Shown piece by piece: positions 1 to 15,352 of a DNA stretch of 18,930 bases. The notes under the pieces are model-generated. The model had not been told where the DNA came from and did no database searches. It worked only from the letters and a program-made list of their open reading frames with translations. The stretch spans positions 1 through 18,930 of the forward strand of contig JBHLRQ010000060.1 of NCBI GenBank assembly GCA_048882385.1, written 5' to 3'. Position numbers and translations under genes: made by a program. The DNA is from Candidatus Thorarchaeota archaeon (GTDB lineage: Archaea > Asgardarchaeota > Thorarchaeia > Thorarchaeales > Thorarchaeaceae). Each line of letters opens with the position of its first letter. Within the stretch, counting starts at the first letter, position 1.

Positions 1-3
1 GAA

Positions 4-546
4 CTACTGGTTCAGATACAGCTCAAGGTAAGATTCACGAATTGTCTGGGAGGCGTCCAGTCCAAGCTCATCCAGCATGGCAAAGATCTCGTTCTTTGTA
101 GTCTCTACGTCTTTGCCACTGGCGATTTGCTCTATCTCAAGAAATAACCCAACATCCTCAACCTCGTCGATACTGATTGTTGTCTTGGATAGACTGAAGA
201 ACTGTCGAGTCTTCGTGATTTTCACAACCTCTTTGAAACCAAGACCCTTGAGGATTAATACAATCTCATTTTCATTGTCGAGATTCACTGTGGATTCAAG
301 TCGCGTTTTCGTAGTGCTATCAATTCTTGGTCCCTTGTAGGTCAGTTCTACAGTGCCAACTGGCTGTCTATATCGCACCCTGAGTGCTTCATCTGTTTCC
401 TGAAATGTTCTACAAGGATGATCAAAATATGAGTCAATTTGAGTTTCTTTGTTGATTTTCTCTGCACCAAGCTTCAATATCCTGTCTTCCATTTCCTCAT
501 AGCTGGATATAGCAATCTTGACTTCAACCTCGTATGTATCACTCAT
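4..546 (-). CDS. cyaB: Class IV adenylate cyclase / CYTH-domain protein
   Basis: N-terminal ExExK motif (YEVEVK), plus QIDSYF, DEALRVR, LTYKGPR, GLFLEIE and C-terminal SYLELY. Start moved from 600 to the ATG at 546 (MSDTYEVEVK) because the ExExK motif normally lies at the N-terminus. Confidence 0.9.
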   Translation of the reverse strand: MSDTYEVEVKIAISSYEEMEDRILKLGAEKINKETQIDSYFDHPCRTFQETDEALRVRYRQPVGTVELTYKGPRIDSTTKTRLESTVNLDNENEIVLILKGLGFKEVVKITKTRQFFSLSKTTISIDEVEDVGLFLEIEQIASGKDVETTKNEIFAMLDELGLDASQTIRESYLELYLNQ

Positions 547-663
547 CAGGAACAACCTCGTCATGCTTGGTTCAGTCATTCCACTGTTAGGTGTTTCCAT
601 CAGATGAATGAGCCATAAGCCAAATAACGGCGTTGAATCATCTTGTGGAAGGCAGGTGTCAAT

Positions 664-1914
664 TTGTCAAAACTGAAGAGTATCAAATGTGCAAAGTGTG
701 GCAAGACCTATGATATATCGAACGTACCCTCCAATGATGGATGTGGAGGTAGAATAGATTTCGAGTTTGACCTTGAAACAATTAAAGACACCATTACGAA
801 AGAGAATCTATCAAAGAGGACTCCTGGACTCTGGAAATACTTTGAGTTGATGCCGCTTATTGATAAGAAGCACATAGTGACGCTTGGAGAGGGAGGAACC
901 CCTCTGGTAGATAGCAAGAGACTCTCAAAAGAATGGAAAATGAAGAATCTCTCACTCAAAATTGAAACTGTCAATCCATCAGGTTCTTTCAAAGACAGGC
1001 CGATCTGTGTGGGAGTCAGCAAGGCACTTGAAGATGGTGTCAAGACTGTTTCTGCTGCATCATCAGGAAACGCTGCTGCATCTATGTCGACTTATGCTGC
1101 AAGAGCTGGACTTCAGGCAGTTGTATTTGTACCTGAAGACGCTCCTAAAGGAAAACTGATTCATCTGAGAACCTTAGGTGCTAAGGTCTTCAGAGTGAAG
1201 AAGGTCCAAGAGGGAGTAGATCCAACTACGACATTACTCCTAGCAGCTTGCAAGGAGTTTGGTTGGACTCCTTCGCCTTCCTTTGGTCCTTTCAATGGTT
1301 TCCAATTTGAAGGAACCAAGTCGTTAGGATTTGAGATTGCAGAACAAACACAATGGAATCCACCAGATTGGATACTCTTTCCGACTGGGAGCGGAGGACT
1401 TATGGCAGGTACCATGAAAGGACTCTGGGAGTTTCAACAGATGGGATTGATAGATTGCCTACCTCGACCTGTTGTAGTGCAGCCAGAAGGATGTGCACCA
1501 ATTGTGAGAGCTTTCAAGGAAGAGCAGGAACCACTGAATATAGTACCTTGGGATTCGAACGAAACAGTAGCAGGAGGACTTGCAGATCCATTCCCCTGGG
1601 ATGGTGATGCGGCTCTTAGATATCTCAAATTGGCAAAAGGTGAAGCTATAGCAGTTTCAGATACTGCGATTGAGGAGTCACTTGTAGAACTTGGTAAATT
1701 TGAGGGTGTCTTCGCAGAACCTAGTGGAGTCGCAGCTCTTGCAGGATTGAAGCAACTTATGGACCAAGGAACCATCGATAGGTCTGACAGAGTGATTGTT
1801 CCTATTACAGGATCAGGTTTCAAGGACTTAGCCACACCAGACAGACTAACCCCTGAAGTGAAGCTGATTCCGCCAGAAACCTCAGAGCTCAAGAGAGCCT
1901 TGGAGAATTATTAG
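664..1914 (+). CDS. Threonine synthase-family PLP-dependent enzyme (fold type II) with an N-terminal Zn-ribbon-like segment
   Basis: Motifs LGEGGTPL, NPSGSFKDR (PLP lysine), SSGNA, PTGSGG, AEPSG and ITGSGFKD, plus N-terminal CAKC...GCGG. TTG start at 664 follows AGGTG at 654-658; the ORF track starts at 643. Confidence 0.85.
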   Translation: MSKLKSIKCAKCGKTYDISNVPSNDGCGGRIDFEFDLETIKDTITKENLSKRTPGLWKYFELMPLIDKKHIVTLGEGGTPLVDSKRLSKEWKMKNLSLKIETVNPSGSFKDRPICVGVSKALEDGVKTVSAASSGNAAASMSTYAARAGLQAVVFVPEDAPKGKLIHLRTLGAKVFRVKKVQEGVDPTTTLLLAACKEFGWTPSPSFGPFNGFQFEGTKSLGFEIAEQTQWNPPDWILFPTGSGGLMAGTMKGLWEFQQMGLIDCLPRPVVVQPEGCAPIVRAFKEEQEPLNIVPWDSNETVAGGLADPFPWDGDAALRYLKLAKGEAIAVSDTAIEESLVELGKFEGVFAEPSGVAALAGLKQLMDQGTIDRSDRVIVPITGSGFKDLATPDRLTPEVKLIPPETSELKRALENY

Positions 1915-1927
1915 TCAGGTGAGATGA

Positions 1928-2374
1928 TTGGAGAACATTGAAGAATACATGGAAGAAGCGATCAATGAAGCCAAGAAGGGACTAGAAGAGGGGGGAATAC
2001 CGATAGGTTCAGTTCTTGTCATCGATGGAAAGATTGTGGGAAGAGGTCACAATCAGCGAATACAGAAGGGCAGTGCAGTGCTGCATGCGGAAATGGACTG
2101 TTTGGAAAATGCTGGACGATTGACAGCCAAGGACTACAGAAATTCAGTTCTTTTTTCTACACTCTCTCCTTGTGATATGTGCAGTGGTGCTGTACTACTA
2201 TACGGGATACCAAAAGTGATTGTTGGAGAGAATGTCACTTTTCAAGGGCCCGAGGTGTATCTACGTAAGCGCGGTGTTGATGTAGTAGTTCTCAATGATG
2301 TTGAGTGCATAGAGATGATGAGGAAATTTATCGAGGAAAATCCGATTTTATGGAACGAAGATATAGGTGAGTAG
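1928..2374 (+). CDS. Zn-dependent cytosine/nucleoside deaminase, yeast Fcy1-like
   Basis: HAE and PCDMC zinc motifs, GGIPIG, GRGHN and C-terminal WNEDIGE. TTG start follows AGGTGA at 1917-1922. Confidence 0.88.
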   Translation: MENIEEYMEEAINEAKKGLEEGGIPIGSVLVIDGKIVGRGHNQRIQKGSAVLHAEMDCLENAGRLTAKDYRNSVLFSTLSPCDMCSGAVLLYGIPKVIVGENVTFQGPEVYLRKRGVDVVVLNDVECIEMMRKFIEENPILWNEDIGE

Positions 2375-2401
2375 ATAAAACAAAAGTTGGGGATGTTGAG
2401 A

Positions 2402-3385
2402 ATGTCAAAGAAGGAGATACGTAACAGAGCCAAGCAATTGGCTAAGGAGTACGGATATCTCCAGTACATGATAGAGCGCTATCTCGCCTTATGGGGAGAA
2501 GAAAAAACTCTGGAGTTTCTCGAAGCTTGTGACAAACCTGTTCGCACATCGATTCGAATCAACACTCTCAAATGTACAAAAGAGGAGGTTCTGCGGCGCC
2601 TGCAAGATAAATCAGTGATTGTTGATGAGATTCCATGGCTAGAACATGGATTTTTGGCCAATTTTCGAGATTCTTCTCCTGGAGCAATGTTAGAACATAT
2701 GCTTGGATACTACTACGTACAGGGAGTACCATCGATGACTGCAGTGGCAGTACTGGACCCACAGCCGGGCGAAACAATTCTTGATTTAGCTGCTGCGCCT
2801 GGAGGGAAGACAACCCACATCGGCCAAATGATGAATAACGACGGAATGGTCATTGCTATCGAGCAAGACCGACTACGGATGACCAGTCTCAAGAGCAACA
2901 TAATTCGGTGTGGAGTGACCAATTCATTAGTTCTACGGGGTGATGCGAGAAAACTTGACCAACTTGGTTTCGAGCCGGATAGAATTCTTCTCGATGCGCC
3001 TTGTTCAGGTGAAGGTCTGATACCTCTAGATCCTACGAGAAAGACTAGCAAGACCATGGCTGATATTAGATATTGTGCTACCAGAGAGGATGAAATGTTA
3101 GAAGCTGCTGTCAATGCTCTCTCTGATGGAGGTACAATCGTCTATTCCACCTGCTCAATTGCTCCTGAAGAAAATGAATACATTGTTGATGATATATTGA
3201 AGAGATACCCGGAGATAGAGATTGCTGAGATTCCTATTGATTTTGGAGTCTCAGGATATTCTGAACCTTATGGTGTTAAGTTGAATGATTCATTGATTCG
3301 CGCAAGACGCTTTCTCCCACACCTACATGGAACAGAGGGCTTTTTCATTTGTAAGATGGTGAAAACGGAGGGGAAGAATAAATGA
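2402..3385 (+). CDS. NOL1/NOP2/Sun (RsmB/RsmF) family RNA m5C methyltransferase
   Basis: DLAAAPGGKT (SAM binding), LDAPCSGEG (motif IV Cys), YSTCS (motif VI Cys), EENE and EGFFI. Start is uncertain (2387 TTG, 2393 ATG or 2402 ATG). Confidence 0.93.
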   Translation: MSKKEIRNRAKQLAKEYGYLQYMIERYLALWGEEKTLEFLEACDKPVRTSIRINTLKCTKEEVLRRLQDKSVIVDEIPWLEHGFLANFRDSSPGAMLEHMLGYYYVQGVPSMTAVAVLDPQPGETILDLAAAPGGKTTHIGQMMNNDGMVIAIEQDRLRMTSLKSNIIRCGVTNSLVLRGDARKLDQLGFEPDRILLDAPCSGEGLIPLDPTRKTSKTMADIRYCATREDEMLEAAVNALSDGGTIVYSTCSIAPEENEYIVDDILKRYPEIEIAEIPIDFGVSGYSEPYGVKLNDSLIRARRFLPHLHGTEGFFICKMVKTEGKNK

Positions 3386-3927
3386 CTCTAGAACTGGTTG
3401 ATCCTGTTGAATGGACATCCATTGCAGAACAGATCGATGATGAGTTTGGAACGGGAGTTACAAAAAGACTGTTAGGAACTCGTGTCCCCGTTGTTTTACC
3501 AAAAGAGGATACTAGGACATTCTTCCTTATACCTACTGAATGGATGTCAATTGTCACTGGGGAAGGTGGCGAAGAACTTGATATACAGTTTTTGGGGAAG
3601 GAACTCGGTTCAAAAGTTAAAGGCAGAATCAGAATGAGCCTCCAGATTCTTGGCGAACTAAAAGACCTGACTGATAATTTCATCATTGTCACAAAACACA
3701 GTGGAGAAGCATTCACCTATGGCAGGAGCATCCTCAAGGAGTCTGTTATCGAGTTGAGTCCAGAATTGAAGAGGGGTCAGAGAGTCCTAGTTCTGAACAA
3801 GGAACGTGAATGTCTTGGTATTGCCTCTCTTTCAATCGATGCATCAAGATTGAACCGTTTGAGCGGGGACAAACTAGTAGGGAAGAATCTCATTGATATC
3901 GGATGGTTCATTAGACGTCTTGGTTAG
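3382..3927 (+). CDS. NIP7-like pre-PUA/PUA-domain ribosome biogenesis protein
   Basis: C-terminal PUA signature (FTYGRSIL, GQRVLVLN...CLGIA, NLIDIGWFIR). ATGA overlap with the Nop2-family gene, a known archaeal pairing. Confidence 0.82.
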   Translation: MTLELVDPVEWTSIAEQIDDEFGTGVTKRLLGTRVPVVLPKEDTRTFFLIPTEWMSIVTGEGGEELDIQFLGKELGSKVKGRIRMSLQILGELKDLTDNFIIVTKHSGEAFTYGRSILKESVIELSPELKRGQRVLVLNKERECLGIASLSIDASRLNRLSGDKLVGKNLIDIGWFIRRLG

Positions 3928-4670
3928 ACAAACATGTCACTTGACCGGTCCGAGGACTCAATGGATTTGCGCATTTTCTCAAGTCTTTCGATTTCACGTG
4001 ATTCCTCAAGGAGCTGCTCTACATTTGCTCCAACACCGTAGACATCATTGATTTTCTCCAACATTGTTGCAGCAGATCGTGGATCTGGTCTTCCTCTAGT
4101 TGCATAGGTGAGTAGACCAATGGCAGGAGCGTTATGCATCTCCAGTTCAGCTAAGAACAGAGCTAATGGACCTGCTACAAAGAGTCCTTCTTCAAGAAGT
4201 GGAACGGCCCATTTTTTGAGTAAATCGCCATAAGCGGTAGTTGGAACGCATCGCATGTCTTCTTCATCTTCCTTGAAACTAGCATCTAGTCCACCAAGGA
4301 GTAGTGTTTCTGCGAACTTATTTTCAGCCACCCATGAGGCTAAGCGATCTATGAAGCCCCACTGTTCAGATTGATGCGGTTGAAAACGTGGGACAAGAAA
4401 GACCATCTTTTTTGGCTCATAGGAATACAATTCAAACGGAAGTACCAATCGTTCATTCTCCATTGACACGAAAAGGGGGAGCATGTCACTCTTGATGAAA
4501 CCTATTCGTTCCGCCTCAAGGGTTCTAGTCAGATGGGCTGTACTCAGAAAACCAACTTCACCCAGACCATGAAAACCACATATGAAAGTCGAACCTGGTT
4601 TTACCTTGAAATCTTTCTTCAGAATGATTTTGAAAGATGAATCAGTAGTAGCTACGAAAGCCATAATCAT
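3924..4670 (-). CDS. PAC2 family (proteasome assembly chaperone-like) protein
   Basis: GFHGLGEVG, LLGG, GPLAL and PDPRSAA motifs typical of archaeal PAC2-family proteins. Confidence 0.88.
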   Translation of the reverse strand: MIMAFVATTDSSFKIILKKDFKVKPGSTFICGFHGLGEVGFLSTAHLTRTLEAERIGFIKSDMLPLFVSMENERLVLPFELYSYEPKKMVFLVPRFQPHQSEQWGFIDRLASWVAENKFAETLLLGGLDASFKEDEEDMRCVPTTAYGDLLKKWAVPLLEEGLFVAGPLALFLAELEMHNAPAIGLLTYATRGRPDPRSAATMLEKINDVYGVGANVEQLLEESREIERLEKMRKSIESSDRSSDMFV

Positions 4671-4751
4671 TCACGCCTAATTGAGAGGGCAGAGATGGCT
4701 CAGCCTCTCGCTGTTGGGTCTATGATAGAATTTTGGTACTTGCTTTTGAGG

Positions 4752-4760
4752 CTTTATATG
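4752..4760 (-). promoter_or_regulatory. Candidate TATA box for the PAC2 gene
   Basis: Minus strand reads CATATAAAG about 80 nt upstream of the start codon, implying a leader of roughly 55-60 nt. Confidence 0.45.
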
Positions 4761-4870
4761 TGTCTACATAAGATTGGCATTGTAGAGCCAGTTATACACG
4801 GTTTAAGCGCATAGGATGAAGTCTGAAGAGTTGTGTATTTTTGGACCAGCTTTGCGTTATTTTGTCCAAG

Positions 4871-4924
4871 TACGCATAAAACTAATAGGATAAGATGATA
4901 TATCCTCATATAACCTTATGCGCA
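4871..4924. repeat. Nested imperfect inverted repeat immediately upstream of the pseudo-helicase gene
   Basis: CGCATAA (4873-4879) pairs with TTATGCG (4916-4922). Inner AGGATA (4887-4892) pairs with TATCCT (4901-4906). Confidence 0.55.
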
Positions 4925-4929
4925 TTTGA

Positions 4930-7146
4930 ATGACGGAGCGGGCTTATTTGAGCACTCTTAGGGAATTAGAACTCCAACAGGTTGCTCCCCGTTTGTTGGA
5001 GTTGCTCAGAAGACAGGGACTTGCCTCACTCAGTAGATTCCAGATTCTCGCAGTAAATCAAAGAATAATGAGAGGAAACAGCCAGCTCTTAGTGACCTAT
5101 GACTATGATGAAGCCTATCTTGTCGGTGAAATTGCACTATTGAATAGGGTTACCTCTGATCATCGTGCTCGCGCTATTGTGCTATGTCCCAATCCATACC
5201 AAGCCGATAAGAGATTCCAATCCATTAGCCAGAAAACAAGTCGACTTGGTATTCCCGCATCCCAGATTATTCGACGAAGAGATGCAACAAGGAGTACTCC
5301 ATCAGGAAGAGTAATTGTTGCGACTTTCAGATCTTTTGACATCGCTTCCAGAGTCAACCCAGAGATTCTCAAAGGTGTTGTTTTTGTTTTAATAGACAGG
5401 TTAGATCTGATTGGACAGCCAGGTATTGGAGCGAGTCTTGAAACGGTTCTAGTCACACTACTAAGTAAACCAAAGATCCAATATGTAGCAATATGCCCAC
5501 CTCTAGAAGATATTGATGAACTAAGCAGATGGCTCAATGCGGAGTACATTCAAGATCCAAAGACGGACGTGAAAGTCATCTTCAGCGTGAAGGCTGTTGA
5601 AGATTCTAGAGAATCGATTGCGGATTTGACACAGTTTGTGCAATCTCGTGAAGGACAGGTTTTGATTCTTTGCGCAAATATCGGCACAGCTGAAGATTTG
5701 GCACTTGAACTTTCAGGCTTTGATTCTAGGAAGGACTCAGCAATCCTTGATCTAAGACTCTCTCCGGAACATAGAGATGATCTCAGATATCTCTCAAGAG
5801 ATATCAAAGAGAAATACCCTCAGTGTAAAACTACAGAAAATCTAGCTAAAACGGTTTCAAGAGGTGTTGCATTCTTTCATGAAGGAGTGGGTATGACTCA
5901 GAGAAGAATCCTCTCGGACGCGTGGGAAGAGGGATTGCTGCCTGTAATCATCATGCCTACTAGATTTGCTATTGCGAGTGGTCTTAGGGCTACAGTAGTA
6001 TTCCTGATGGGTGTTTTCATGCAGGAGTTTGGAAAGGAGGTTTCACAAGAAGATGCTGTTACAATGTTATCAGAATGGCAACTCAGTGATGTCCTTGAAG
6101 CTGCGGGAAGAAGAGGGATAGACAATGAGGCATTTGGCATCGTTGTAGTGGATAGCGAATCAGAGAAAACCAGAGTTATTGCAAAGTTCTTCCAAAAGGA
6201 CTCAAAGGGCAATCTACAACCCAACCTTGGGGAAGTAGACAGTGTCATGGATGATCCTGAGAATGTTCAAGACTTGGTTCTCAGACAACTCTGCGGAAAA
6301 ACCGATGATGATGAGGACCCATTCTCAATTATAGACAGAACTTTGTGGGGGAGTAGTAGTCGCGCAATGGATTTGCAGCAAGTGGAAACACATGATGAGG
6401 CTGCTGTTGCCAGCCTATTAGCAATGCGTTCCACAAGATCGACAGTTGCAAGAGCCAAAGAGATTCCGAGTTCAAGTGTAAAACTTGTCTCAGTGAGACC
6501 TGACAAGATAGAAGGTCTAGTCCATAGTGGGAGTCGAGAGATCTGGCACTATGCAACATTGAGATCAAAGGATGGTGTTGCTTGTTCATGTGAATCATGG
6601 AAATATCAGGGAATAAGAAAACATAGGCTTTGCAAACATCTCGTTAAGTTTTCACAGTACGCACTAGATAATGAGGAATCGAAACCCTATGCAGCAGGAG
6701 TTATTCTTCAAGCCCTGCGGGGGCTTGAGATTTATAGCGATCTTGAATCGGACAAACTAATCATCCGTGATAGAGAAAGTACCAAATGTACAGATCTTGG
6801 AAAGAGCGTAGCAGTCTTAGGTGTGCCTGTAAAAGATGCAAAGAAAGTGATGCAGGCAATTGGTGATGAAAAGAGCGATTTGAAGTCAATACTTGAGAGC
6901 GTGGTATTAACACGGGCCAATGTGCCAAAGGATGTTGTGAAAGGGGTCTTGGATAGACTTCCAGCGAAGACGATAGAAGAGATTGTATGTGAAGAAGATA
7001 TGCCTGGTATTATTGAGAATTGTCTTGAGGAATTAGAATACATAAACTCGATACTCTTGAAGCTGATGATTGAAAAACACAAAGCACGAAACGAGAGTAA
7101 GAAACTCCATGACAATCTGTTGATGCTATTGGAGTCCATGCGGTAA
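4930..7146 (+). CDS. Hel308/Ski2-like SF2 helicase homologue with degenerate ATPase motifs and an internal SWIM zinc finger
   Basis: Colinear with Hel308 by eye (GLASLSRFQ Q-motif, GASLE, ELSRWLNA, GQVLIL, RGVAFFHEG, AGRRGID, TDLGKSVA). Motif I reads TYDYDEAY, motif II DRLD and motif III CPP. SWIM motif CSC-x13-CKH at nt 6583-6639. Confidence 0.85.
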   Translation: MTERAYLSTLRELELQQVAPRLLELLRRQGLASLSRFQILAVNQRIMRGNSQLLVTYDYDEAYLVGEIALLNRVTSDHRARAIVLCPNPYQADKRFQSISQKTSRLGIPASQIIRRRDATRSTPSGRVIVATFRSFDIASRVNPEILKGVVFVLIDRLDLIGQPGIGASLETVLVTLLSKPKIQYVAICPPLEDIDELSRWLNAEYIQDPKTDVKVIFSVKAVEDSRESIADLTQFVQSREGQVLILCANIGTAEDLALELSGFDSRKDSAILDLRLSPEHRDDLRYLSRDIKEKYPQCKTTENLAKTVSRGVAFFHEGVGMTQRRILSDAWEEGLLPVIIMPTRFAIASGLRATVVFLMGVFMQEFGKEVSQEDAVTMLSEWQLSDVLEAAGRRGIDNEAFGIVVVDSESEKTRVIAKFFQKDSKGNLQPNLGEVDSVMDDPENVQDLVLRQLCGKTDDDEDPFSIIDRTLWGSSSRAMDLQQVETHDEAAVASLLAMRSTRSTVARAKEIPSSSVKLVSVRPDKIEGLVHSGSREIWHYATLRSKDGVACSCESWKYQGIRKHRLCKHLVKFSQYALDNEESKPYAAGVILQALRGLEIYSDLESDKLIIRDRESTKCTDLGKSVAVLGVPVKDAKKVMQAIGDEKSDLKSILESVVLTRANVPKDVVKGVLDRLPAKTIEEIVCEEDMPGIIENCLEELEYINSILLKLMIEKHKARNESKKLHDNLLMLLESMR

Positions 7147-7196
7147 CATTTTTACGTCGGTTGACTTGTGGCGGCCTAGACTCAAGGGTGAGCCCC

Positions 7197-8342
7197 ATGA
7201 AATTGTTTGAACACGAGGCCAAGGACATTTTCAGAAACTTCAAGTTGCCGACTCCTCCAGGAGGTGTCGCTGAAACTCCAAAGGACGCAAAAGAACGCGC
7301 AGCAGAAGTTGGAAAACCAGTTGTTGTCAAGGCAATGGTTCTTGCAGGTAAGCGAGGAAAGGTGGGTGGAGTAAAGTTCGCGGATACTCCTGAAGAAGCA
7401 GAAAAGTGTGCTGAAGAGATTCTGAAGATGCGTATCAACGACCTCCCAGTAGAGGCGGTTCTCATTGAGGAAAAACTAGACATCGAGCAGGAAATCTACG
7501 CTGGAATCACAATTGACAGAAATGAACGCAAGTATGTTGTAATTGGTAGCGCAGCTGGTGGCATGTCAATAGAAGAACTTGCAGAAGAGAGTCCAGAGAA
7601 AATCATCAAAATGCATGTTGACCCAAGTCTTGGATTCCAACCATATGAAGCCAGACAGATGGCTATTGACATGGGATTTAGGGGTAAGCAGATTAACCAG
7701 CTTGGTAGCTTCTTTCTGAAACTTTGGCAGATTGTGGAAGCATTCGATGTTGAGCTCACAGAAATCAATCCATTGATTCTCACAAAGGATGGTAGGTTCT
7801 TCGCAGCAGATGCCAGACTCAATATCGACGATAACTCGCTCTACAGACATAAGGAAATCATCGAGAAACTCAAACGTGAACCTATTGAGCAGAATGAACG
7901 GGAAAGACTCGCTACAGAGAATGATATGGCCTATGTTGAACTCGATGGTAATATTGCATGCATTTGTAATGGTGCAGGTCTTACCATGGCTACCCTTGAC
8001 GCTGTGTCCCTCTATGGAGGAAAGGCAAGCACCTTTCTCGATCTTGGAGGAGGTGCAGATGCAGAAAGAGTTGAGAAAGGGATTGAAATTGCGCTGATGT
8101 ATCCCAATGTGAAGGCAATCCTCGTCAACATAATGGGAGGAATTACAAGATGTGATGAGGTCGCCAAAGGAATAGTATCTGCGAAAAACGATGGCGATAT
8201 CACAACTCCCATGGTTATTCGAATGGTAGGAACCAATGAAGAGGAGGGGCAAGAGATTCTGAAGACAGCTGGAATACCGTTCCTCAAGACAATGGAAGAG
8301 GCTGCTTCAAAGGTAGTAGAACTTGCAAAGGAGGCTATTTAG
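7197..8342 (+). CDS. sucC: Succinyl-CoA synthetase (ADP-forming) beta subunit
   Basis: MKLFEHEAK start, GKRGKVGGVK, EINPL, NGAGLTMATLD, FLDLGGGA, NIMGGITRCD and RMVGTN. ATG 7197 follows GGGTGAG. Confidence 0.96.
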   Translation: MKLFEHEAKDIFRNFKLPTPPGGVAETPKDAKERAAEVGKPVVVKAMVLAGKRGKVGGVKFADTPEEAEKCAEEILKMRINDLPVEAVLIEEKLDIEQEIYAGITIDRNERKYVVIGSAAGGMSIEELAEESPEKIIKMHVDPSLGFQPYEARQMAIDMGFRGKQINQLGSFFLKLWQIVEAFDVELTEINPLILTKDGRFFAADARLNIDDNSLYRHKEIIEKLKREPIEQNERERLATENDMAYVELDGNIACICNGAGLTMATLDAVSLYGGKASTFLDLGGGADAERVEKGIEIALMYPNVKAILVNIMGGITRCDEVAKGIVSAKNDGDITTPMVIRMVGTNEEEGQEILKTAGIPFLKTMEEAASKVVELAKEAI

Positions 8343-9212
8343 TTGGCAGTACTTGTAGACAAAGATACACGAGTGATAGTTCAAGGAATCACTGGCACAC
8401 AGGGAAAATATCACACGATATCCATGCTGAAATATGGTACAAAGATAGTTGCTGGGACATCACCTGGAAAATCAGGAGAAGAGGTCAATGGTGTGCCTGT
8501 TTATGATAGCGTTTCTGAAGCAAAAAAGACAGAAAACGCTACTGCATCAATAATCTTTGTTCCGGCACCTTTTGCAGGTGATGCTGCACTTGAAGCGATA
8601 GCCGCAGACTTGAATCCTGTTGTGATAATTACTGAACATGTTCCTGTAAAAGATGAAATTCGTGTAATTCATGCTGCAAAGCAAAAGGGGATTACCATTA
8701 TTGGCCCAAACACACCTGGAATCATTACGCCTGATGCAAAACAGAAAGTTGGGATAATGCCTGGACATGTATTTTCAGATGGTGATGTGGGTCTCATGTC
8801 GCGAAGTGGGACTCTAACATATGAGATTGCTGCAGGTATGACAAATGCAGGCATTGGAATCTCCACTGCAATTGGTCTTGGTGGAGACCCCTGTGTGGGT
8901 CTTACTACAATCGAGGCAGTCAAGCTTTTCAAAGAAGACAGGGATACTAAGGCGCTAGTCTTGGTTGGTGAAATTGGTGGCGATGCAGAAGAGAGAGCTG
9001 CAGCCTACATCAAAAAGGAGTACGATCTTCCAGTTGTTGGGTTCATAGCAGGCAGAACTGCACCTCCGGGAAAACGAATGGGTCATGCTGGCGCGATAAT
9101 CAGTGGCAGCTCCGGAACTGCAGCAGCAAAAATCAAAGCTCTGAATGAAGCCGGTATTGCAGTCGCAGACAAGCCAAGTGATGTTGCTAGACTCCTAAAA
9201 GAAGCTATTTGA
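8343..9212 (+). CDS. sucD: Succinyl-CoA synthetase alpha subunit
   Basis: VQGITG, IGPNTPG, SRSGTLTYE, GEIGG and RMGHAGA (phospho-His). TTG start follows GGAGG at 8330-8334. Confidence 0.96.
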   Translation: MAVLVDKDTRVIVQGITGTQGKYHTISMLKYGTKIVAGTSPGKSGEEVNGVPVYDSVSEAKKTENATASIIFVPAPFAGDAALEAIAADLNPVVIITEHVPVKDEIRVIHAAKQKGITIIGPNTPGIITPDAKQKVGIMPGHVFSDGDVGLMSRSGTLTYEIAAGMTNAGIGISTAIGLGGDPCVGLTTIEAVKLFKEDRDTKALVLVGEIGGDAEERAAAYIKKEYDLPVVGFIAGRTAPPGKRMGHAGAIISGSSGTAAAKIKALNEAGIAVADKPSDVARLLKEAI

Positions 9213-9232
9213 TTTGTGGAAAGAGCACAAGC

Positions 9233-9240
9233 TTTTAAAA
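9233..9240 (+). promoter_or_regulatory. Candidate TATA box for the rpl40e-tRNA-rpl38e unit
   Basis: TTTTAAAA about 76 nt upstream of the rpl40e ATG. Confidence 0.5.
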
Positions 9241-9315
9241 CACATCCCGGTTGGGAAGCCGAGCGGGCTAACTAGAGACTACTCTATTCGCCGTACATGA
9301 AATGAGGTTCAAGTG

Positions 9316-9474
9316 ATGCCAGTAGCTGACATCGAAAAACGTAGACTAGCACAGCACTACCTGCTGTATAAGTCCATATGCCGATACTGTGGAGCATCGA
9401 ATCCACTTAAGGCAAAGAAGTGCAGAAAGTGCAAGAACAAGGACCTCAGACCAAAGAGGCGTCAGAAGAAGTAA
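9316..9474 (+). CDS. rpl40e: Ribosomal protein eL40 (L40e), stand-alone; absent from the ORF track
   Basis: Manual translation: MPVADIEKRRLAQHYLLYKSICRYCGASNPLKAKKCRKCKNKDLRPKRRQKK (52 aa). It carries the ICxxCxAxN...CRKC...LRPK signature, and GAGGT lies upstream. Confidence 0.95.
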   Translation: MPVADIEKRRLAQHYLLYKSICRYCGASNPLKAKKCRKCKNKDLRPKRRQKK

Positions 9475-9500
9475 TCCTCTGGTTTAAAGGCCCTAGTTAC

Positions 9501-9623
9501 GGGCCGGTGGTCTAGCCCGGTTATGACGTCGCCTTCACAAATAGAGGCCAATTGACCATATTGGGAACTGACCTCTGTGGGAAGCGGCGAATATCACGAG
9601 TTCGAATCTCGTCCGGCCCACCA
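9501..9623 (+). tRNA. tRNA-Val(CAC) with a ~45-nt intron at 37/38 (9540-9584) and encoded CCA
   Basis: Acceptor stem GGGCCGG/CCGGCCC, D-arm GTCT...TGAC, anticodon stem TCGCC/GGCGA, spliced loop TT-CAC-A^C, T-arm ACGAG-TTCGAAT-CTCGT, discriminator A9620, CCA 9621-9623. The intron helix ATAGAGG/CCTCTGT forms a relaxed bulge-helix-bulge. Confidence 0.92.
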
Positions 9624-9653
9624 CCAAAACACAACAACAGAATGGTGCTAAAA

Positions 9654-9869
9654 ATGCCAAAACAGATCTATGATGTCGACAAATTCCTCGAGATGTCAGA
9701 GGATGCAGAAGAGTGCAGGGTCAAGAGAGGCAGTAATCAGGTCAAGCTGAAACTCCGAACAAAAACATACCTCTACACCATTGTTGTTGAACCGCAGAAA
9801 GCTGAAGAGATCATCCAGCAAGTCAAATGCCAAGTAGTAGAGGCCCGAAGTGGCGAAAAAGCGGCTTAA
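9654..9869 (+). CDS. rpl38e: Ribosomal protein eL38 (L38e)
   Basis: MPKQIYDVDKFL...VKLKLRTKTYLYTIVVE..KAE matches the eL38 pattern (MP..I.....FL...KFKVR..RYLYTL....KAE). The upstream part of the track ORF (9552-9653) overlaps the tRNA, so the start is ATG 9654 after GGTG. Confidence 0.9.
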   Translation: MPKQIYDVDKFLEMSEDAEECRVKRGSNQVKLKLRTKTYLYTIVVEPQKAEEIIQQVKCQVVEARSGEKAA

Positions 9870-11131
9870 ATCTTAACTTTATCGTTGATCTCTGGAACAT
9901 GCGCTACAAGTTTTCGTTTTTCTAGTTTCTCAGCTAAGGCGTCGCAAGATTCTGATTCTCCATGAATCACATAGAATTCGGGGTCTCCTGGAATTCTTGT
10001 GAGCATATCCAACATGGCTTTGGAATCGGAGTGTGAGGATAAGTGATGCTGACGGATATCTGCAGTCACCTCAAAGATCCTACCACCAACTGTGACTTTC
10101 TTAGTGGCAAGCATCTCGGCACCAGGTGTACCTGGAATTTGGTAACTAACAAGAACAATCGAATTCTTTGGATTATCATGCAGCATTTTGAAATAAAGAT
10201 GTGATGCCCCGCCCTTCAACATTCCTGCTGGAGAGATTATAATTCCACCCTTTTGAACTGCCTTAGTTCGGTCACGATTATCATTAATGACATGAGTTCG
10301 ACCAACAGCTCGTTGAAACGATTGAGGACTCTGAAGGTATTCTGGATGTTTCACAAGAACTTCATTGACAGCACGTGCCATCCCATCAATGTAAATTGGA
10401 TACTTACGTGGAAGTTCATGACGTTCCAGAATGCACATGATTTCTTGACTTCGACCCACAGCAAATGCTGGAATCAAAACAGTTCCACCACGTTCTAATG
10501 TTTCTATTATAGTGTCAATTAGGGCTATCTCAATATCTTCTCTTTTTGGGTTTACTCGACGAGCATACGTACTCTCAGTCACCACAACATCATGCTTTGG
10601 CAAGTTCTTTCTTGCACCAGGGTTCAACTGAGACTCGGTTGCATTGAAATCTCCAGTAAATAGAATTCGCTTTCCATTTACCCTGACTGAAACCATAGCA
10701 CTTCCTGGAATATGACCAGCATTGAACAAAGTCATCTCAAAGTGGTGACCTAGAGGAATTGTTTCCTCATAGGCAGTTGCTTGACTTTGTCTTCGGACCA
10801 ATGCAATATCCTTGCGGGTATAGGGTAGAGGACCTCTGGAGATGTTGAACATATCACGAAGCAACAGGATGCTTAAATCACGAGTAGCTGGAGTGCAGAA
10901 TAATGAAGCTTCACTCTTTGAAAGTATACCTGGAATACCACCCGAATGGTCAAGATGTGAATGGGTCAACCCTATACCTTGGAGTGTATCGGTCGGGACC
11001 ATATCAGGAAAAGAGGGAGGTTCAGTGAATTTCACTCCATAGTCCACTAATACACTCTCATCCTTTTGCTCTACCAAAAAGCCTGAACGACCAATCTCTC
11101 TACATGATCCAAGAAATGTGAGCTCTGCCAT
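9866..11131 (-). CDS. MBL-fold beta-CASP ribonuclease without KH domains (aCPSF2-like)
   Basis: FLGSCREIGRS, VDYG, THSHLDHSG, AGHIPGS, FTGDF, ESTY, PAFAVGRSQE, SSHSD and IHGE. Start set at ATG 11131 (MAELTFLG). Confidence 0.9.
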   Translation of the reverse strand: MAELTFLGSCREIGRSGFLVEQKDESVLVDYGVKFTEPPSFPDMVPTDTLQGIGLTHSHLDHSGGIPGILSKSEASLFCTPATRDLSILLLRDMFNISRGPLPYTRKDIALVRRQSQATAYEETIPLGHHFEMTLFNAGHIPGSAMVSVRVNGKRILFTGDFNATESQLNPGARKNLPKHDVVVTESTYARRVNPKREDIEIALIDTIIETLERGGTVLIPAFAVGRSQEIMCILERHELPRKYPIYIDGMARAVNEVLVKHPEYLQSPQSFQRAVGRTHVINDNRDRTKAVQKGGIIISPAGMLKGGASHLYFKMLHDNPKNSIVLVSYQIPGTPGAEMLATKKVTVGGRIFEVTADIRQHHLSSHSDSKAMLDMLTRIPGDPEFYVIHGESESCDALAEKLEKRKLVAHVPEINDKVKI

Positions 11132-11321
11132 TAATTTTTCTTCCTGAGCTGAGCCAATGAAAATCAAAGAAAAAGGTTTGGCAAAGCGCCATATCGTAGC
11201 TTAGTTGCCTCAAAGGAAAATTCTGCCATTATTTTTCTTTATTGAGAGAAACGAAATCTATATCAGACTGAGACCTATTCTGGTCTGTGATTGGCAACAG
11301 TAGTAGGCGGAGAGACTTCGG

Positions 11322-11654
11322 TTGACGGAGGAAAATACCGACGGAAAGTCGAGCAATAAGAAGACAGACCCTGAAGATTTGCAGGAAGATATGGATTGCA
11401 TTCTTGTGGGCAATAAGAATGTGATGTCATATGTGTTAGCCTGTGTGACCTTGTTTAACAAGGGTGCAGACGAAGTGATCATTAAGGCACGTGGCAGGTT
11501 AATCAGCAGAGCTGTAGATGTTGCAGAGATTACGCGTCACAGGTTCATTTCCGACCTCAAAGTGAAAAGCATAGAAATCGGAACTACCACTGTCCAAACG
11601 GACAAAGGTAGTGACTTGAATGTATCAACGATTGACATAACACTGTCCAGATAG
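11322..11654 (+). CDS. albA: DNA/RNA-binding protein Alba
   Basis: [33 protein letters not shown] and NVSTIDITL. Alternative start at ATG 11391. Confidence 0.95.
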
Positions 11655-11669
11655 ACGTATTCTCTGCTG

Positions 11670-11719
11670 TTCCTCGCCCGAAGCGCTGTCCTAACTGAGC
11701 CTTCGAAACTGGCGAGGAA
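11670..11719 (+). promoter_or_regulatory. Stable intergenic RNA hairpin covering the ribosome-binding site of the downstream gene
   Basis: TTCCTCGCC/GGCGAGGAA (9 bp), CGAAG/CTTCG (5 bp) and GCT/AGC (3 bp). GAGGA in the 3' arm lies 7 nt before ATG 11726. Confidence 0.6.
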
Positions 11720-11725
11720 AAATAG

Positions 11726-12310
11726 ATGCGACTACCTGTCTGTAACTTTGATCTGGAATCGGATATGCTTTGTACAAATTGTCAGGCAAGACTTGACAGA
11801 GGGGAGCTTAAACATTTTGACATTGAATTCAGCAAATGGATGCTTGAGAGAGAAAAATCCTATCCAAGCTTGGTGGACCTGACTCTACAGAGAGCTGCTA
11901 AAGTTGGAGACAGGCTCATTCTCGTGGTGAAGAAGAAGGGTAAGAGTCTCATTCTAAGTGAGGAGTCTCTAGTCAATGAGATGACTGAACAGTATGGGGA
12001 ACCAATGATAGTTGAAGGTCCAATAAAACTTCGAAAGGTTGTACGAGAATTCATACAACCTGCAAATGAGGTGGGAGTAAATAGTCTATATCTTCCTGAT
12101 GGCTCCAAGGAGAGTATCGTAATGCTTCGTGGAGAGGATCGGGAAAGAATATCTTATACAACAGATGAACTTCGACTCATTGTTTCTGCAGTAATGGGTG
12201 AGTCGGTTCTTTTCGAATATCAAGAGGACAGGATAAAGACTGAGAAAGAAGACGCAAAAACAGATGAATTTGATCAACGGATGGAAGAATTGGGCAAGAG
12301 AAGGTTTTAG
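11726..12310 (+). CDS. NusA2-like protein (N-terminal Zn finger plus degenerate KH domains)
   Basis: The N-terminus MRLPVCNFD...LCTNC..RL..GE...FDI resembles archaeal NusA-like KH proteins. P....GVN.LYLPDG matches the second KH-like domain, and the gene is adjacent to alba. Confidence 0.72.
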   Translation: MRLPVCNFDLESDMLCTNCQARLDRGELKHFDIEFSKWMLEREKSYPSLVDLTLQRAAKVGDRLILVVKKKGKSLILSEESLVNEMTEQYGEPMIVEGPIKLRKVVREFIQPANEVGVNSLYLPDGSKESIVMLRGEDRERISYTTDELRLIVSAVMGESVLFEYQEDRIKTEKEDAKTDEFDQRMEELGKRRF

Positions 12311-13647
12311 ACACGATTGATTGGGTGGTTTTTCATTATCTCACGCATCACGACTGTTGCGTATGAACCTTTCCTGAGACTAAACTTCACAAGCACTCCA
12401 TCTTCAGAAATGGATGATTCGATATCAGTCATGAGAATGGATGTCAGATGTAATCCACCGGGAGCATCTAATGCCTTCATCTTGGGATTCCTGAAATCTT
12501 GTAGTTGAGTTCCTTCATCGTTTAGAATCTGCTTTAAGATGCCTGTTTGTGAAGAAGGAGGTAATCTAGTAGCGTATCCTGGTATTGTAGATGCAAGTCC
12601 ATACTCACCAGACACCACCTGTTGTTCTCGTTCTTCAATAGTTGAATCAGTGACAAAAAGCCACGAGTCCCTCCCTGAGTGTGTTTCATCGAGCTTGATG
12701 AGAAAATCACCAACTTGAGGTCGGTTGATGGACATCCCCAATCTTGCGCGTTCACTAATCAAACGATTGAAGATATAGGACTGGAACGCATGAACCTGTA
12801 GAGTGAGCATCTTAGGAGGTATCTTCAGGATGGCCTTCTCGAACTCACCAGGGTGATTCAATAGGTATTTCATTACATCCTTTTCATAGTTGAGGTCTTG
12901 AGGGAACAAGTCGATAACATCCTCTGTTGGTATCAAGTCTTCTTCCAGTCGTATTCTCATGTCAGTAAGTTCATCGGACTCATATTCACTAGTGGTTGTT
13001 AACATAATTCGAACTGCGCTCTCGAAATCTCGCTGAACTAGAGCTTTACCGACAAGATGTGTATATGGTCGAGTCAGACCAAATCGCTGGATTCCAAAAT
13101 AGTTCAGAAGAGGTGTATTTTGGATTTCCATTATGACATCTAATGCAGAGTCACCTTCAGTGTCAATGTTTCGCAAAAGTATTGTGAATCGGTTACCCCA
13201 TAGGTCACCAATCTGTATTGGTTTGCGTGTGTAGCGAATATCTCGAATTGCTATTCGAGATAATTGGAGAGAGGGAAGTATTTCATCAGCACGAGATGGG
13301 ACACTCATGGTTTGAACTGTAATTGCTCTTTTATCCTTGAGACCAGCGTATGTCACATAATTCCGTGAAATTTTGAGTGATGCAGCCAGAATGTTAGATA
13401 TGTCCATCGTTGCAAGACCCATCTTTTGAACTGTGAAAGTCAAAAATCTTGAACGCTCTCCATCGATATTCTGAGGTGATCTTGCAGTAGTTTCCCAATT
13501 TTCGATGGAGAGAACTTGTTTTTCAGGTGTGATCTCTTGGACTATAAAGTCTTCAAAGCGGATCTTTAATTTCCCGCCAATTCCTTCTGATTTGGTAGAA
13601 TAAAGCTCCATCCCCAGTGATTTTTCAAGAGGATGTACTTCTTTCAT
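12307..13647 (-). CDS. truD: tRNA pseudouridine(13) synthase TruD
   Basis: EDFIVQE, YAGLKDKRAITVQ (catalytic Asp), GDLWGNRFTI, NYFGIQRFG, HAFQSYIFN and FSLRKGSYAT. Confidence 0.96.
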   Translation of the reverse strand: MKEVHPLEKSLGMELYSTKSEGIGGKLKIRFEDFIVQEITPEKQVLSIENWETTARSPQNIDGERSRFLTFTVQKMGLATMDISNILAASLKISRNYVTYAGLKDKRAITVQTMSVPSRADEILPSLQLSRIAIRDIRYTRKPIQIGDLWGNRFTILLRNIDTEGDSALDVIMEIQNTPLLNYFGIQRFGLTRPYTHLVGKALVQRDFESAVRIMLTTTSEYESDELTDMRIRLEEDLIPTEDVIDLFPQDLNYEKDVMKYLLNHPGEFEKAILKIPPKMLTLQVHAFQSYIFNRLISERARLGMSINRPQVGDFLIKLDETHSGRDSWLFVTDSTIEEREQQVVSGEYGLASTIPGYATRLPPSSQTGILKQILNDEGTQLQDFRNPKMKALDAPGGLHLTSILMTDIESSISEDGVLVKFSLRKGSYATVVMREIMKNHPINRV

Positions 13648-13656
13648 TTCTGTACC

Positions 13657-14025
13657 TCAGAGTAGCTTTAGTTCACCAGTCACTTCATCAATGATCTCTG
13701 TCTTTGCAGGACCAATGCCTAGAACAGTGATTGTTCCTGGAGGGAGTTCAGTCATACCTGCATCTCTAATTAGAGCATGAGGAAGGGTGTGGCTTACTGC
13801 TTGACGACGTAGCTCAAGTAGCTCCTCTTCAGATGCCACCTTGACTGCCACTTTCTTCTGTCCTTCACGTAGCCAAGCTCTCCAAACATCCTGATTATGC
13901 ACTCTTGCTTGCTCAGCTGCAGAAACAGACCCATGAGCAACTTGAACGGCAATCTTTCCTCTGCTCATATCAAGATCAGTCCGCACGGCAATAACCTGTT
14001 TGTATGTGAATATTCGGGATATCAA
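13657..14025 (-). CDS. pth2: Peptidyl-tRNA hydrolase Pth2
   Basis: YKQVIAVRTDLDMSRGKIAVQVAH, GQKKV, DAGMTEL, TVLGIGP and VTGELKLL. TTG start follows GAGGT. Confidence 0.96.
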   Translation of the reverse strand: MISRIFTYKQVIAVRTDLDMSRGKIAVQVAHGSVSAAEQARVHNQDVWRAWLREGQKKVAVKVASEEELLELRRQAVSHTLPHALIRDAGMTELPPGTITVLGIGPAKTEIIDEVTGELKLL

Positions 14026-14114
14026 ATGACAACCTCTCAGTGACTTGAACTTGTAGGTTCATCTTAGGGGAGAGTTAAAAACGTGCCCAAAGAACAGATA
14101 GTCTGGGTGTTTTA

Positions 14115-15308
14115 TTGAATCAAGAGGCTATCATTGTGGGTGGTGGTCCTGCAGGACTGCTTGCAGCTTCAAAGATAGCTGAGAATAATCATGATGTACT
14201 TTTATTGGAGGAACATCCAGAGATAGGAAAACCAGATCACTGTGCAGGTTTACTCAGTTCTTCTGGTCTAAAGTCACTGGGACTCAGAATCCCAGATGAT
14301 GTTATTCAAAATACAGTTTCAGGGGCTCGAATATACGCACCATCAGGTCATTCAATTCTAGTTGAGAGAGGTCAGCGTGAAGCATTTGTCATTGATAGAC
14401 AACGATTCGATTCTTGGTTAGCAGATGACGCCTTAAAAAAAGGCGTGGATATCATGACAAGTCGTAAGGTTTCTGGGATTGGTAGTTATGTGAATGGGAC
14501 ACGATCAATTCAAACTGACAGTCTAGAATACAATGCTTCGATTACTGTAATTGCTGAAGGTTCACGTTCAGTCCTCACAAAGATGATCGGATTATCCACG
14601 ATATCGAGGAGTAGCAAATTTCCAGCCTATCAGTACGAGGTAAAGGGGGTTGAAATAGAAGACGACCTAGTCGAGATGTTTTATGGGAGAAGAGTTGCTC
14701 CAGGCTTCTTCTCATGGATTATTCCCCTTGGAGAGGGAAGAGCACGAGTAGGATTAGCATCAAAGAACAAATCCAAGATAAGACTTGATGCAGCGATGAT
14801 GCATCATCCAGTAATCAGTAAAAAACTCAGGAATGTAAAGATAGAACGAGGAATGGGAGGAACAGTTCTAGTAGGTCGTCCAGTTTCAAAAATCTCAGGG
14901 GATGGAGCGGTCTCAGTTGGGGATGCTGCTGGAATGGTGAAAGCAACCACAGGAGGCGGTGTTATTATTGGTGGACTTACTGCTTTGGAGGCTGGAAAAA
15001 CAGCTAACGAAGCTCTTCAACGTGGAGATTCATCACGGAAATTACTATCCAGATATGACAAGAGTTGCAAGGCTCTGTATTATAGAGAGCTAGAAACCAT
15101 GTATCTGGCTCAAAGAGCACTCTCCTCACTCACTGACAAAGGGCTTGATTCAGTCATTAAAGATGCACATGAATTAGGATTACTAAGTATCGTGAAAAAA
15201 GAGGGTGATATGGACATGCAAGGGAGAGTGATTCGAAAGCTCATTTCAGACCCGCGTATGATGTTAGTGGGTCTGAAGGCTGTGAGATACATCAATCCAT
15301 TCCTTTAG
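14115..15308 (+). CDS. Geranylgeranyl reductase-family FAD-dependent oxidoreductase
   Basis: IVGGGPAG, PDHCAG, IDRQRFD, PGFFSWIIP and VGDAAG..KATTGGG. Confidence 0.88.
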   Translation: MNQEAIIVGGGPAGLLAASKIAENNHDVLLLEEHPEIGKPDHCAGLLSSSGLKSLGLRIPDDVIQNTVSGARIYAPSGHSILVERGQREAFVIDRQRFDSWLADDALKKGVDIMTSRKVSGIGSYVNGTRSIQTDSLEYNASITVIAEGSRSVLTKMIGLSTISRSSKFPAYQYEVKGVEIEDDLVEMFYGRRVAPGFFSWIIPLGEGRARVGLASKNKSKIRLDAAMMHHPVISKKLRNVKIERGMGGTVLVGRPVSKISGDGAVSVGDAAGMVKATTGGGVIIGGLTALEAGKTANEALQRGDSSRKLLSRYDKSCKALYYRELETMYLAQRALSSLTDKGLDSVIKDAHELGLLSIVKKEGDMDMQGRVIRKLISDPRMMLVGLKAVRYINPFL

Positions 15309-15352
15309 CTTTATGAGCCAAGATAATCACGAATTTGAGGAGGAAATGACAA

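Follow-up and report, generated by a model that had tools for sequence, protein, structure and literature searches.

The gene at positions 4,930 to 7,146 of an 18,930-nucleotide stretch of Candidatus Thorarchaeota archaeon DNA (GenBank assembly GCA_048882385.1, contig JBHLRQ010000060.1, positions 1 to 18,930 of the forward strand; hereafter, the window) encodes a pseudo-helicase of 738 amino acids, which is named PSH here. PSH is related to the DNA helicase Hel308. Its adenosine triphosphatase (ATPase) motifs have been replaced, and the replacements are conserved among its orthologues. A putative SWIM module lies within its winged-helix domain, and the C-terminal domain 5 of Hel308 is missing. 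It is proposed, with a probability of roughly 55%, that PSH has no catalytic activity and acts in DNA recombination or repair as a binding protein or adaptor.

The initial annotation of this DNA had reported 738 uninterrupted codons, and these are present as one open frame. It had also placed the feature at 4930..6240. The start of this interval stands. The end does not, as the gene continues for another 900 bases, and positions 4930-6240 hold only the first 437 codons, i.e., the two RecA-like domains of PSH. Overlooked in that annotation were the C-terminal 300 residues with the SWIM finger, the ratchet that has been kept and the absence of domain 5.

Loss of the ATPase motifs

The Hel308 ATPase motifs I (GKT), II (DExH), III (SAT), and VI (QxxGRAGR) are all missing from PSH. 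The substitutions that the initial annotation had listed for motifs I, Ia, II, III, V, and VI (Table 1) were each seen in residue-level alignments, including those to Hjm. The segments described there as retained, GASLE, ELSRWLNA, GVAFFH, and AGRRGID, were also seen. Because the Lys and Thr of Walker A, the Glu of Walker B, motif III, and the Gln and Arg of motif VI are replaced, PSH is predicted from its sequence neither to bind nor to hydrolyze adenosine triphosphate (ATP). The acidic and aromatic residues in place of the P-loop may obstruct ATP binding, as the initial annotation had suggested.

Some elements of the former active site are left. All 62 aligned family members, dead ones included, have the Gln of the Q-motif (Q38), and PSH retains R394 of motif VI and most of motif IVa. 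These could indicate that PSH is still a nucleoside triphosphatase or translocase with an unorthodox active site. Such an activity is very improbable with the Gly-Lys-Thr of Walker A, the Glu of Walker B, motif III, and the Gln and Arg of motif VI replaced. The sole GKT of PSH (amino acids 456-458, in the winged-helix domain) was considered as a relocated P-loop and was rejected, as it is not conserved in the orthologues.

Conservation and selection

A word-indexed search identified 211 proteins at E≤1e-5. The 120 of these that were listed are 57-92% identical to PSH and about 735 amino acids long; the named records among them are mostly from Candidatus Thorarchaeota and labeled as "hypothetical protein." In contigs taken from one genome per species, 63 loci encode a PSH relative with 44-82% identity. 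Full open frames (728-789 amino acids) are present in 55 of the 61 loci that have a hit of more than 300 amino acids, and the other six end at contig edges. Stop codons that appeared within some matches ("1 TAG" and the like) were dismissed after a check on these loci: the translated match begins ahead of the true start by a few codons, and reading from the start codon gives open frames.

The ratio of nonsynonymous to synonymous substitution rates (dN/dS) was calculated by the Nei-Gojobori method. The median is 0.096 for the 40 pairs with 0.05<dS<1.2 (out of 1540 pairs from 56 sequences), which are not independent of one another. The dead ATPase core (0.093) and the C-terminal part (0.102) give similar values. 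The replaced motifs are themselves kept. In 117 orthologues with at least 57% identity, the consensus sequences are T[YH]DY[DNG]EAY, LCPNP[HY]QAE, DRLDLIGQ, [CST]PP, MP[TIM]RFA[IV]ASG[LM][RK], and VL[EG][AS]AGRRG. The 86 positions of the former motifs have a mean conservation of 0.82, compared to 0.71 for the core. Since only 4 of 5000 random placements of equal blocks reach 0.82, the former active site is constrained more than its surroundings. The best-conserved parts of PSH are the former motif V (0.90) and the SWIM region (0.81), and the best-conserved block of 20 amino acids is 341-360 (0.89), which contains the former motif V.

A decaying pseudogene or an annotation artifact without function could also have lost all of its catalytic motifs, and the NCBI records among the matches listed are mostly "hypothetical protein." This explanation has almost no probability left. 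It is excluded by the open frames, the dN/dS of about 0.1, and the conservation of the dead motifs, and 82 of 85 sister genomes carry the gene. The initial annotation had favored a selected protein over a decaying pseudogene. The orthologues agree with it on each of these counts, the former motifs being conserved beyond the core.

Fold and domain order

The NCBIfam models for Hel308 match amino acids 16-434 of PSH with E values of 1.8e-27 to 3e-23. These matches score 76-96 bits, and the curated cut-offs are 887-1216 bits (81.8 against 1200 for NF040935 and 95.9 against 1216 for NF001308). Because these scores are far under the cut-offs, PSH is considered a relative of Hel308 and not an equivalog. 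A phmmer search of the PDB identified Hjm (2zj2, E 1.6e-21), 2va8 (E 2.2e-15), and 2p6r (E 2e-11).

The Hel308 fold that the initial annotation had assumed was recovered by profile and by structure. Profile-profile alignment (hhalign) of PSH to 16 canonical Hel308 sequences gave a probability of 100 and an E value of 2.1e-41. An AlphaFold2 model of PSH was built on 62 aligned sequences, with a mean predicted local distance difference test (pLDDT) score of 85.2 and a predicted template modeling score of 0.85. Hjm was the first Foldseek match to this model (E 1.7e-25). With VIA-align, the model could be superposed on Hjm 2zj2 over 567 residues (Z 31.3, root mean square deviation 3.1 Å), and model residues 8..733 correspond to residues 1..640 of the 720 in the chain.

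Two RecA-like domains followed by a winged helix and a ratchet were found in PSH both in the model and by hhalign. The Pfam model Helicase_dom4_arc, which matches 12 of the 62 family members, also points to the ratchet. No residues are left past the ratchet for domain 5 (helix-hairpin-helix, HhH), and no HHH Pfam hit was found in PSH; a canonical Hel308 (L089) gives HHH_5 at 5.9e-12. The predicted structure thus shows that the order RecA1-RecA2-winged helix-ratchet has been kept and that domain 5 is absent.

SWIM insertion in the winged helix

The winged helix of PSH is split by a block of about 115 residues that is not aligned to the Hel308 profile and that contains CSCESWKYQGIRKHRLCKH. Four possible metal ligands are present in this block, C552, C554, C568, and H570, in a CxC-x13-CxH arrangement. 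All 62 family sequences have C568 and H570, and at least 90% of them keep C552 and C554. The Pfam SWIM model (PF04434) gives 14 bits (E 0.038) for PSH itself, which is under its cut-off of 19.6. The same model matches 36 of the 62 family members at E≤0.01, with a best value of 2e-6.

When the insert was modeled alone (163 residues, pLDDT 83), its top structural match was the SWIM region of ZSWIM8 (9rwz_M; Z 7.6, root mean square deviation 3.2, 95 amino acids), and a Z below 8 is not decisive alone. This was the sole match with Z≥5 among 48,161 chains. Shu2 (6dex_B) was ranked fifth (Z 4.0). Residues 121-163 of the insert model match the winged helices of POLQ-HLD, HrpA, and DHX37 at Z 3.6-4.4. 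Foldseek identified no match to the isolated insert model at E≤1e-3. The insertion is taken here as a SWIM module, for which the evidence from the fold is modest. An arch insertion in Mtr4/Ski2 is also located in the winged-helix domain, according to a figure legend in PMC10946056, a likeness stated here at the level of the domain.

Origin and distribution

An exhaustive search of 1.84 billion representatives returned 756 hits at E≤1e-3. Outside the close PSH family the best relative, P0130, is only 27% identical (E 2.8e-66). Many relatives of about 730 amino acids have CxC..CxH at the equivalent site together with intact helicase motifs. The SWIM signature was found at the same site as in PSH in 32 further proteins. 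By record name, the sources are Hod-, Ran-, Odin-, Jord-, and Baldrarchaeia. These relatives seem to form one family of Hel308-like helicases, spread across the Asgard archaea, with a SWIM finger in the winged helix; most of its members are intact helicases.

A careful maximum likelihood tree of 26 rows separates the SWIM family from canonical Hel308 with a support of 100/100. It places PSH in a clade with proteins from Hodarchaeia and Odinarchaeia (clade B, 99/94), and the stem to PSH has 2.46 substitutions per site. A quick tree of 56 rows agrees (99 for the split between the SWIM family and Hel308); joins of long branches were flagged in it for the Ran and Odin outliers. PSH had been described as Hel308-derived by the initial annotation. 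The homology holds for amino acids 16-434, but descent from Hel308 proper does not, as PSH belongs to a sister family that is specific to the Asgard archaea and carries the SWIM finger.

None of the clade-B members examined has kept motif III, and SSN, SGK, AEP, SAN, SDI, LSG, or CPP is found in its place. The Gln of motif VI is gone in all of these but one. The Hod sequences of clade B still have the P-loop, as do one Ran sequence and three of four Odin sequences. PSH has lost it, and so have P0280 from Ranarchaeia (SSNRQSKD) and P0149 from Odinarchaeia (CTPMSCWE). The last of these proteins is also shortened (593 amino acids). From this pattern, the decay began at the base of clade B and became complete at least three times independently. 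With motifs III and VI lost first and the P-loop later, clade B could serve as a natural series for a Hel308 fold without ATP.

A match at E≤1e-20 is present in 85 of the 87 genomes of the window's class. In its family, 82 of the 85 other genomes have a match at E≤1e-36, with 45-82% identity for hits that are not ended by a contig edge; the three without a match are 92, 85, and 65% complete. The sister family is represented by a single genome (96% complete) that has only an intact clade-A paralogue with 24% identity. Hits at E≤1e-36 are present in 22 of the other 314 genomes of the phylum, all with 22-27% identity, and the two largest other families have none at this threshold (0/135 and 0/31 genomes). 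PSH, the dead form, is restricted to a single family of Thorarchaeia.

Intact relatives and a repair gene cluster

Two intact relatives of PSH were identified when the window's own assembly (95% complete) was searched. One is the separate Hel308 that the initial annotation had hoped to find in the genome. It adjoins an MCM gene and possesses PTSSGKT, DEIH, SAT, and QMAGRAGR. The other, P0122 (G000:C69), is an intact SWIM-Hel308 paralogue of 731 amino acids that is 23% identical to PSH.

P0122 is encoded in a cluster of co-directional genes (Table 1). The order is an XPD-like gene, an open reading frame (ORF) of 199 amino acids, a 781-amino-acid protein, P0122, a 544-amino-acid protein, a KaiC-like ATPase, a 320-amino-acid protein, a RadA paralogue (Pfam Rad51, 1.3e-7), and FEN1. 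The 781-, 544-, 320-, and 199-amino-acid proteins have no Pfam or PADLOC hit. The RadA paralogue is present in 54 of the 87 genomes of the class; 20 of these have it 4-6 kilobases from the paralogue helicase on a single contig. Of 20 loci that were retrieved, all had the RadA paralogue and the 320-amino-acid gene and 19 had the KaiC-like gene, the retrieved stretch having ended short at the remaining locus. Clusters in another Asgard family also hold genes for a KaiC-like protein and FEN1.

The P0122 cluster looks like an undescribed Asgard repair module. The consensus of its RadA paralogue (L092:2657-3376, reverse strand) is without GK[ST] and has HGxERAPLT at the expected site of Walker A. 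This paralogue may be a second ATPase-dead protein of the same pathway, judging from that consensus. The KaiC-like ATPase retains GSGKT.

A defense-system function was considered and rejected. PSH has a marginal hit to HamB (E 7e-4), and the HamB-type hits of P0122 (1e-41) come via the generic helicase core. No PADLOC hit was found among the neighbors of P0122 beyond a weak match to mad8.

The presence of both an intact paralogue with the same architecture and a canonical Hel308 raises another explanation. PSH could be a regulatory cassette that acts in trans on the ATPase or helicase activity of either one, as in Brr2. Second hits with 24-28% identity are found in many genomes of the class. 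The C-terminal cassette of Brr2 is a pseudo-enzyme that stimulates the N-terminal cassette, according to 10.1101/758698 and PMC8220420. Several of the top structural matches to PSH are this cassette from human Brr2 (residues 1307-1952, Z 27-29). The explanation is nonetheless rather improbable. PSH and the intact paralogue are unlinked, on different contigs, and their two clades have very different SWIM sequences. The Brr2 cassette also retains its nucleotide pocket, and PSH does not. A predicted complex of the PSH SWIM insert with the KaiC-like ATPase and the RadA paralogue scored 0.00 (mark 0.32), which speaks neither for nor against binding.

Gene context

The order of a divergent PAC2-family gene, PSH, sucC, and sucD is held in essentially all 63 loci, and the entire 14-kilobase neighborhood is likewise collinear within the family. 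Other genes in the window encode an RsmB/Nop2-type methyltransferase, a UPF0113/PUA protein, L38e, a beta-CASP nuclease, Alba, TruD, Pth2, Pus10, L21e, an Rpb4-like protein, and KsgA. The clade-B relatives in two other lineages adjoin ThiN or aconitase. The context of PSH says little about PSH itself, because the whole 14 kilobases are collinear and the neighbors differ in clade B.

These genes could nevertheless suggest a different role. Dead helicase folds that act as scaffolds in ribosome assembly exist, Utp25 being one. Instead of acting in DNA repair, PSH could serve ribosome biogenesis or the processing of RNA as a scaffold that binds RNA or is part of a ribonucleoprotein, i.e., a dead Ski2-like placeholder in which the SWIM module plays the part of the Mtr4/Ski2 arch. 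The window is rich in genes for RNA modification and the ribosome, and the order from PAC2 to sucD is kept with its flanks in essentially all of the 63 loci. RNA helicases are also found among the Ski2-like relatives, and the arch is in the same domain as the SWIM insert, going by the legend mentioned above (PMC10946056). Still, this role is considered unlikely. Collinearity within one family makes adjacency little informative, and no RNA gene lies directly beside PSH, whose immediate neighbors are a proteasome-chaperone-family gene and succinyl-CoA ligase. Elsewhere, ThiN or aconitase is found beside the clade-B relatives. The closest solved folds are DNA helicases, and the sister clade is embedded among DNA-repair genes.

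PSH and the PAC2-family gene have their upstream space in common. Stretches rich in A/T that resemble a TATA box were read by eye 15-35 nucleotides upstream of the PSH ATG. The TTG start listed for sucC, at 7161, probably lies upstream of the true one. Position 7198 has an ATG that opens MKLFEHEAK and is preceded by GGGTGA (region 7146-7198). Co-transcription of PSH and sucC is possible because about 51 nucleotides separate the PSH stop codon from this ATG. Two other ORFs were observed in the window. The small ORF at 9552-9869 (forward strand) matches the ribosomal protein L38e (Pfam 2.8e-12, amino acids 36-91) and is syntenic in most loci. The ORF at 11726-12310 (forward strand) encodes 194 amino acids, is located between Alba and TruD, and is syntenic across the family; it has no Pfam hit at 1e-5.

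Table 1. Positions of PSH, its domains and motifs, and related features. Positions are those of the window unless a locus is given.
Feature	Position	Strand	Description
PAC2-family gene	3924-4670	-	Divergent from PSH
Intergenic region, PSH/PAC2-family gene	4671..4929	.	Common upstream space
PSH	4930..7146	+	Pseudo-helicase, 738 amino acids; single ORF, no internal stop; stop codon 7144-7146
RecA1-like domain	4951..5559	+	Amino acids ~8-210; former motifs Q, I, Ia, Ib, II, III
Former Walker A (motif I)	5095..5118	+	TYDYDEAY (56-63) for PTxxGKT (Hjm PTASGKT); near-invariant in orthologues
Former motif Ia	5188..5202	+	PNPYQ (87-91) for PLRAL
Former Walker B (motif II)	5395..5406	+	DRLD (156-159) for DExH (DEIH); R157, L158, D159 invariant in 22 orthologues
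Former motif III	5494..5502	+	CPP (189-191) for SAT
RecA2-like domain	5560..6219	+	Amino acids ~211-430; former motifs IV, IVa, V, VI
Motif IVa, mostly kept	5863..5889	+	GVAFFHEGV, compared to GVAFHHAGL; F315, H317, E318, G319, V320 invariant in 22 orthologues
Former motif V (IMPTRFAIASGLR)	5950..5988	+	RFAIASGLRA for TLAAGVNLPA
Former motif VI	6088..6111	+	DVLEAAGR (387-394) for QMxGRAGR (QMLGRAGR); Gln and first Arg gone
Winged-helix domain, first part	6220..6360	+	Amino acids ~431-477; profile-profile alignment
Insertion within winged-helix domain, with putative SWIM module	6361..6711	+	Amino acids ~478-594; four strands 517-552, then two helices
SWIM signature	6583..6639	+	CxC-x13-CxH (C552, C554, C568, H570); metal-ligand signature
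Winged-helix domain, second part	6712..6828	+	Amino acids ~595-633
Helical C-terminal domain	6829..7143	+	Equivalent of Hel308 ratchet (domain 4); structural alignment to Hjm
P0122 cluster	L092 (G000:C69:3000-16000), 1651-12944	-	Co-directional

Possible function

As an ATP-independent clamp or adaptor, PSH would still use its Hel308-type ring to engage nucleic acid that is single-stranded or branched, and this would most likely be DNA. The SWIM module on the winged helix would be the specific site at which a partner protein or DNA docks. The former ATP cleft is predicted to be filled by conserved residues, including the charged D58, E61, R157, R345, and R394, and these may fix the RecA domains in one state. 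The pathway would probably be recombination repair, which is the setting of the intact sister paralogue's genes. An adaptor role in repair had also been suggested by the initial annotation, and the cluster around this paralogue gives circumstantial support for it.

DNA recombination is favored as the setting because of the DNA helicases among the relatives of PSH, the repair cluster of the sister clade, and the literature on HELQ and the Shu proteins. The SWIM proteins Shu2/SWS1 bind Rad51 paralogues through the SWIM domain. There is precedent for activity of this fold without ATP: according to a 2026 review (PMC13623763), HELQ that is ATPase-null anneals naked DNA. The same review states that HELQ binds BCDX2, a complex of RAD51 paralogues.

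Several observations weigh against this proposal. In PSH, the replaced motifs include Ia, IV, and V, with which Hel308 contacts DNA, and for this reason binding of nucleic acid through the canonical channel is not assured. Domain 5 is named as the annealing domain of Hel308/HELQ in PMC13623763, and a role of PSH as an annealase is doubtful because it is missing. PSH is acidic overall (isoelectric point 5.75, net charge -10), as are, to the same degree, P0122 and the Hel308 of its genome. The neighborhood of PSH is made up of RNA-modification and ribosome genes, not repair genes. The clade-B relatives in other Asgard lineages have no neighbors in common with PSH or with the repair cluster. On the side of expression, the 20 public sequencing runs that hold the stretch, from 7 studies, are all of DNA.

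A more elaborate arrangement can be imagined and is considered quite improbable. PSH would dock on the intact paralogue (or on Hel308) and on degenerate RadA-paralogue partners, as the non-catalytic regulatory cassette and substrate selector of a two-cassette machine of the Ski2/Hel308 type that is assembled in trans. If this were true, PSH would correspond, as a free-standing archaeal protein, to the inactive cassettes of the eukaryotic Brr2/ASCC3 type and to the modules of SWIM proteins with Rad51 paralogues (Shu-like). The stepwise loss of motifs in clade B would then record the origin of pseudo-cassettes.

Dead copies of motor enzymes are often regulators. In eukaryotes, the inactive cassette of Brr2 is central to the control of splicing, and the ATPase-dead Rad51 paralogues are central to that of recombination. 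If PSH, as an adaptor in recombination, binds branched DNA or RadA paralogues, it would be a new control element in archaeal recombination. It would also link the biology of Hel308 and of SWIM proteins to the connection between HELQ and the RAD51 paralogues in animals. In addition, PSH exposes an apparently undescribed family of Asgard helicases, the active members of which are encoded with XPD, FEN1, and RadA paralogues.

Comparison with known systems

PSH resembles Hel308/Hjm (2zj2, 2va8, and 2p6r) in the order RecA1-RecA2-winged helix-ratchet (Z 29.5-31.3), in motif IVa, in the Gln of the Q-motif, and in several structural segments. Unlike these helicases, it has replaced ATPase motifs, no HhH domain 5, and the SWIM insertion of about 115 residues, and it branches outside of Hel308 (100/100).

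The C-terminal cassette of Brr2 is, like PSH, a pseudo-enzyme on the Ski2/Hel308 fold (Z 27-29), and it has been kept for regulation and protein docking, according to the sources cited above. It is in tandem with an active cassette and possesses a nucleotide pocket, as both Brr2 cassettes do (PMC8220420), and a Sec63 module. PSH, in contrast, is a free-standing single cassette that has a SWIM finger and is without a P-loop and without a Sec63 or HhH/FN3 part. No Sec63 Pfam hit was found in PSH, and neither a tandem nor a pocket of the Brr2 type is present.

With the SWIM proteins (PF04434; ZSWIM8; Shu2/SWS1), PSH shares the CxCxnCxH signature and, in the model, appears to share a module of a beta-sheet plus helices. 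It differs from them in that the domain is inserted inside the winged-helix domain of a helicase and has a Pfam score under the cut-off.

The closest relatives of PSH are the clade-B proteins P0130, P0137, P0141, P0135, P0280, and P0149 from Hod-, Odin-, and Ranarchaeia (22-27% identity). These possess the SWIM signature C-x-C-E-[HYS]-[WF]-[KR]-[FY] and have also lost motif III. Unlike PSH, most of them keep the P-loop and the DE of motif II, and they are found in other gene neighborhoods. The intact SWIM-Hel308-like helicases are like PSH in length (about 730 amino acids), domain order, and SWIM insertion site, and in their monophyly with respect to Hel308. They differ in that they keep GKT, DExH/Q, SAT, and QxxGRAGR and are encoded in a cluster of repair genes.

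Neither a SWIM-bearing nor an inactive Hel308 paralogue was found described in the main texts of the literature searched, and the Ski2-like trees of PMC10946056 may hold such sequences unremarked. The word "swim" occurs 0 times in PMC10946056 and PMC13623763. The initial annotation had named no characterized archaeal family like PSH, in agreement with this search result. A pseudo-enzyme on the Ski2/Hel308 fold is of a known kind, and the free-standing, SWIM-bearing form without a P-loop, together with its parent family, appears to be new.

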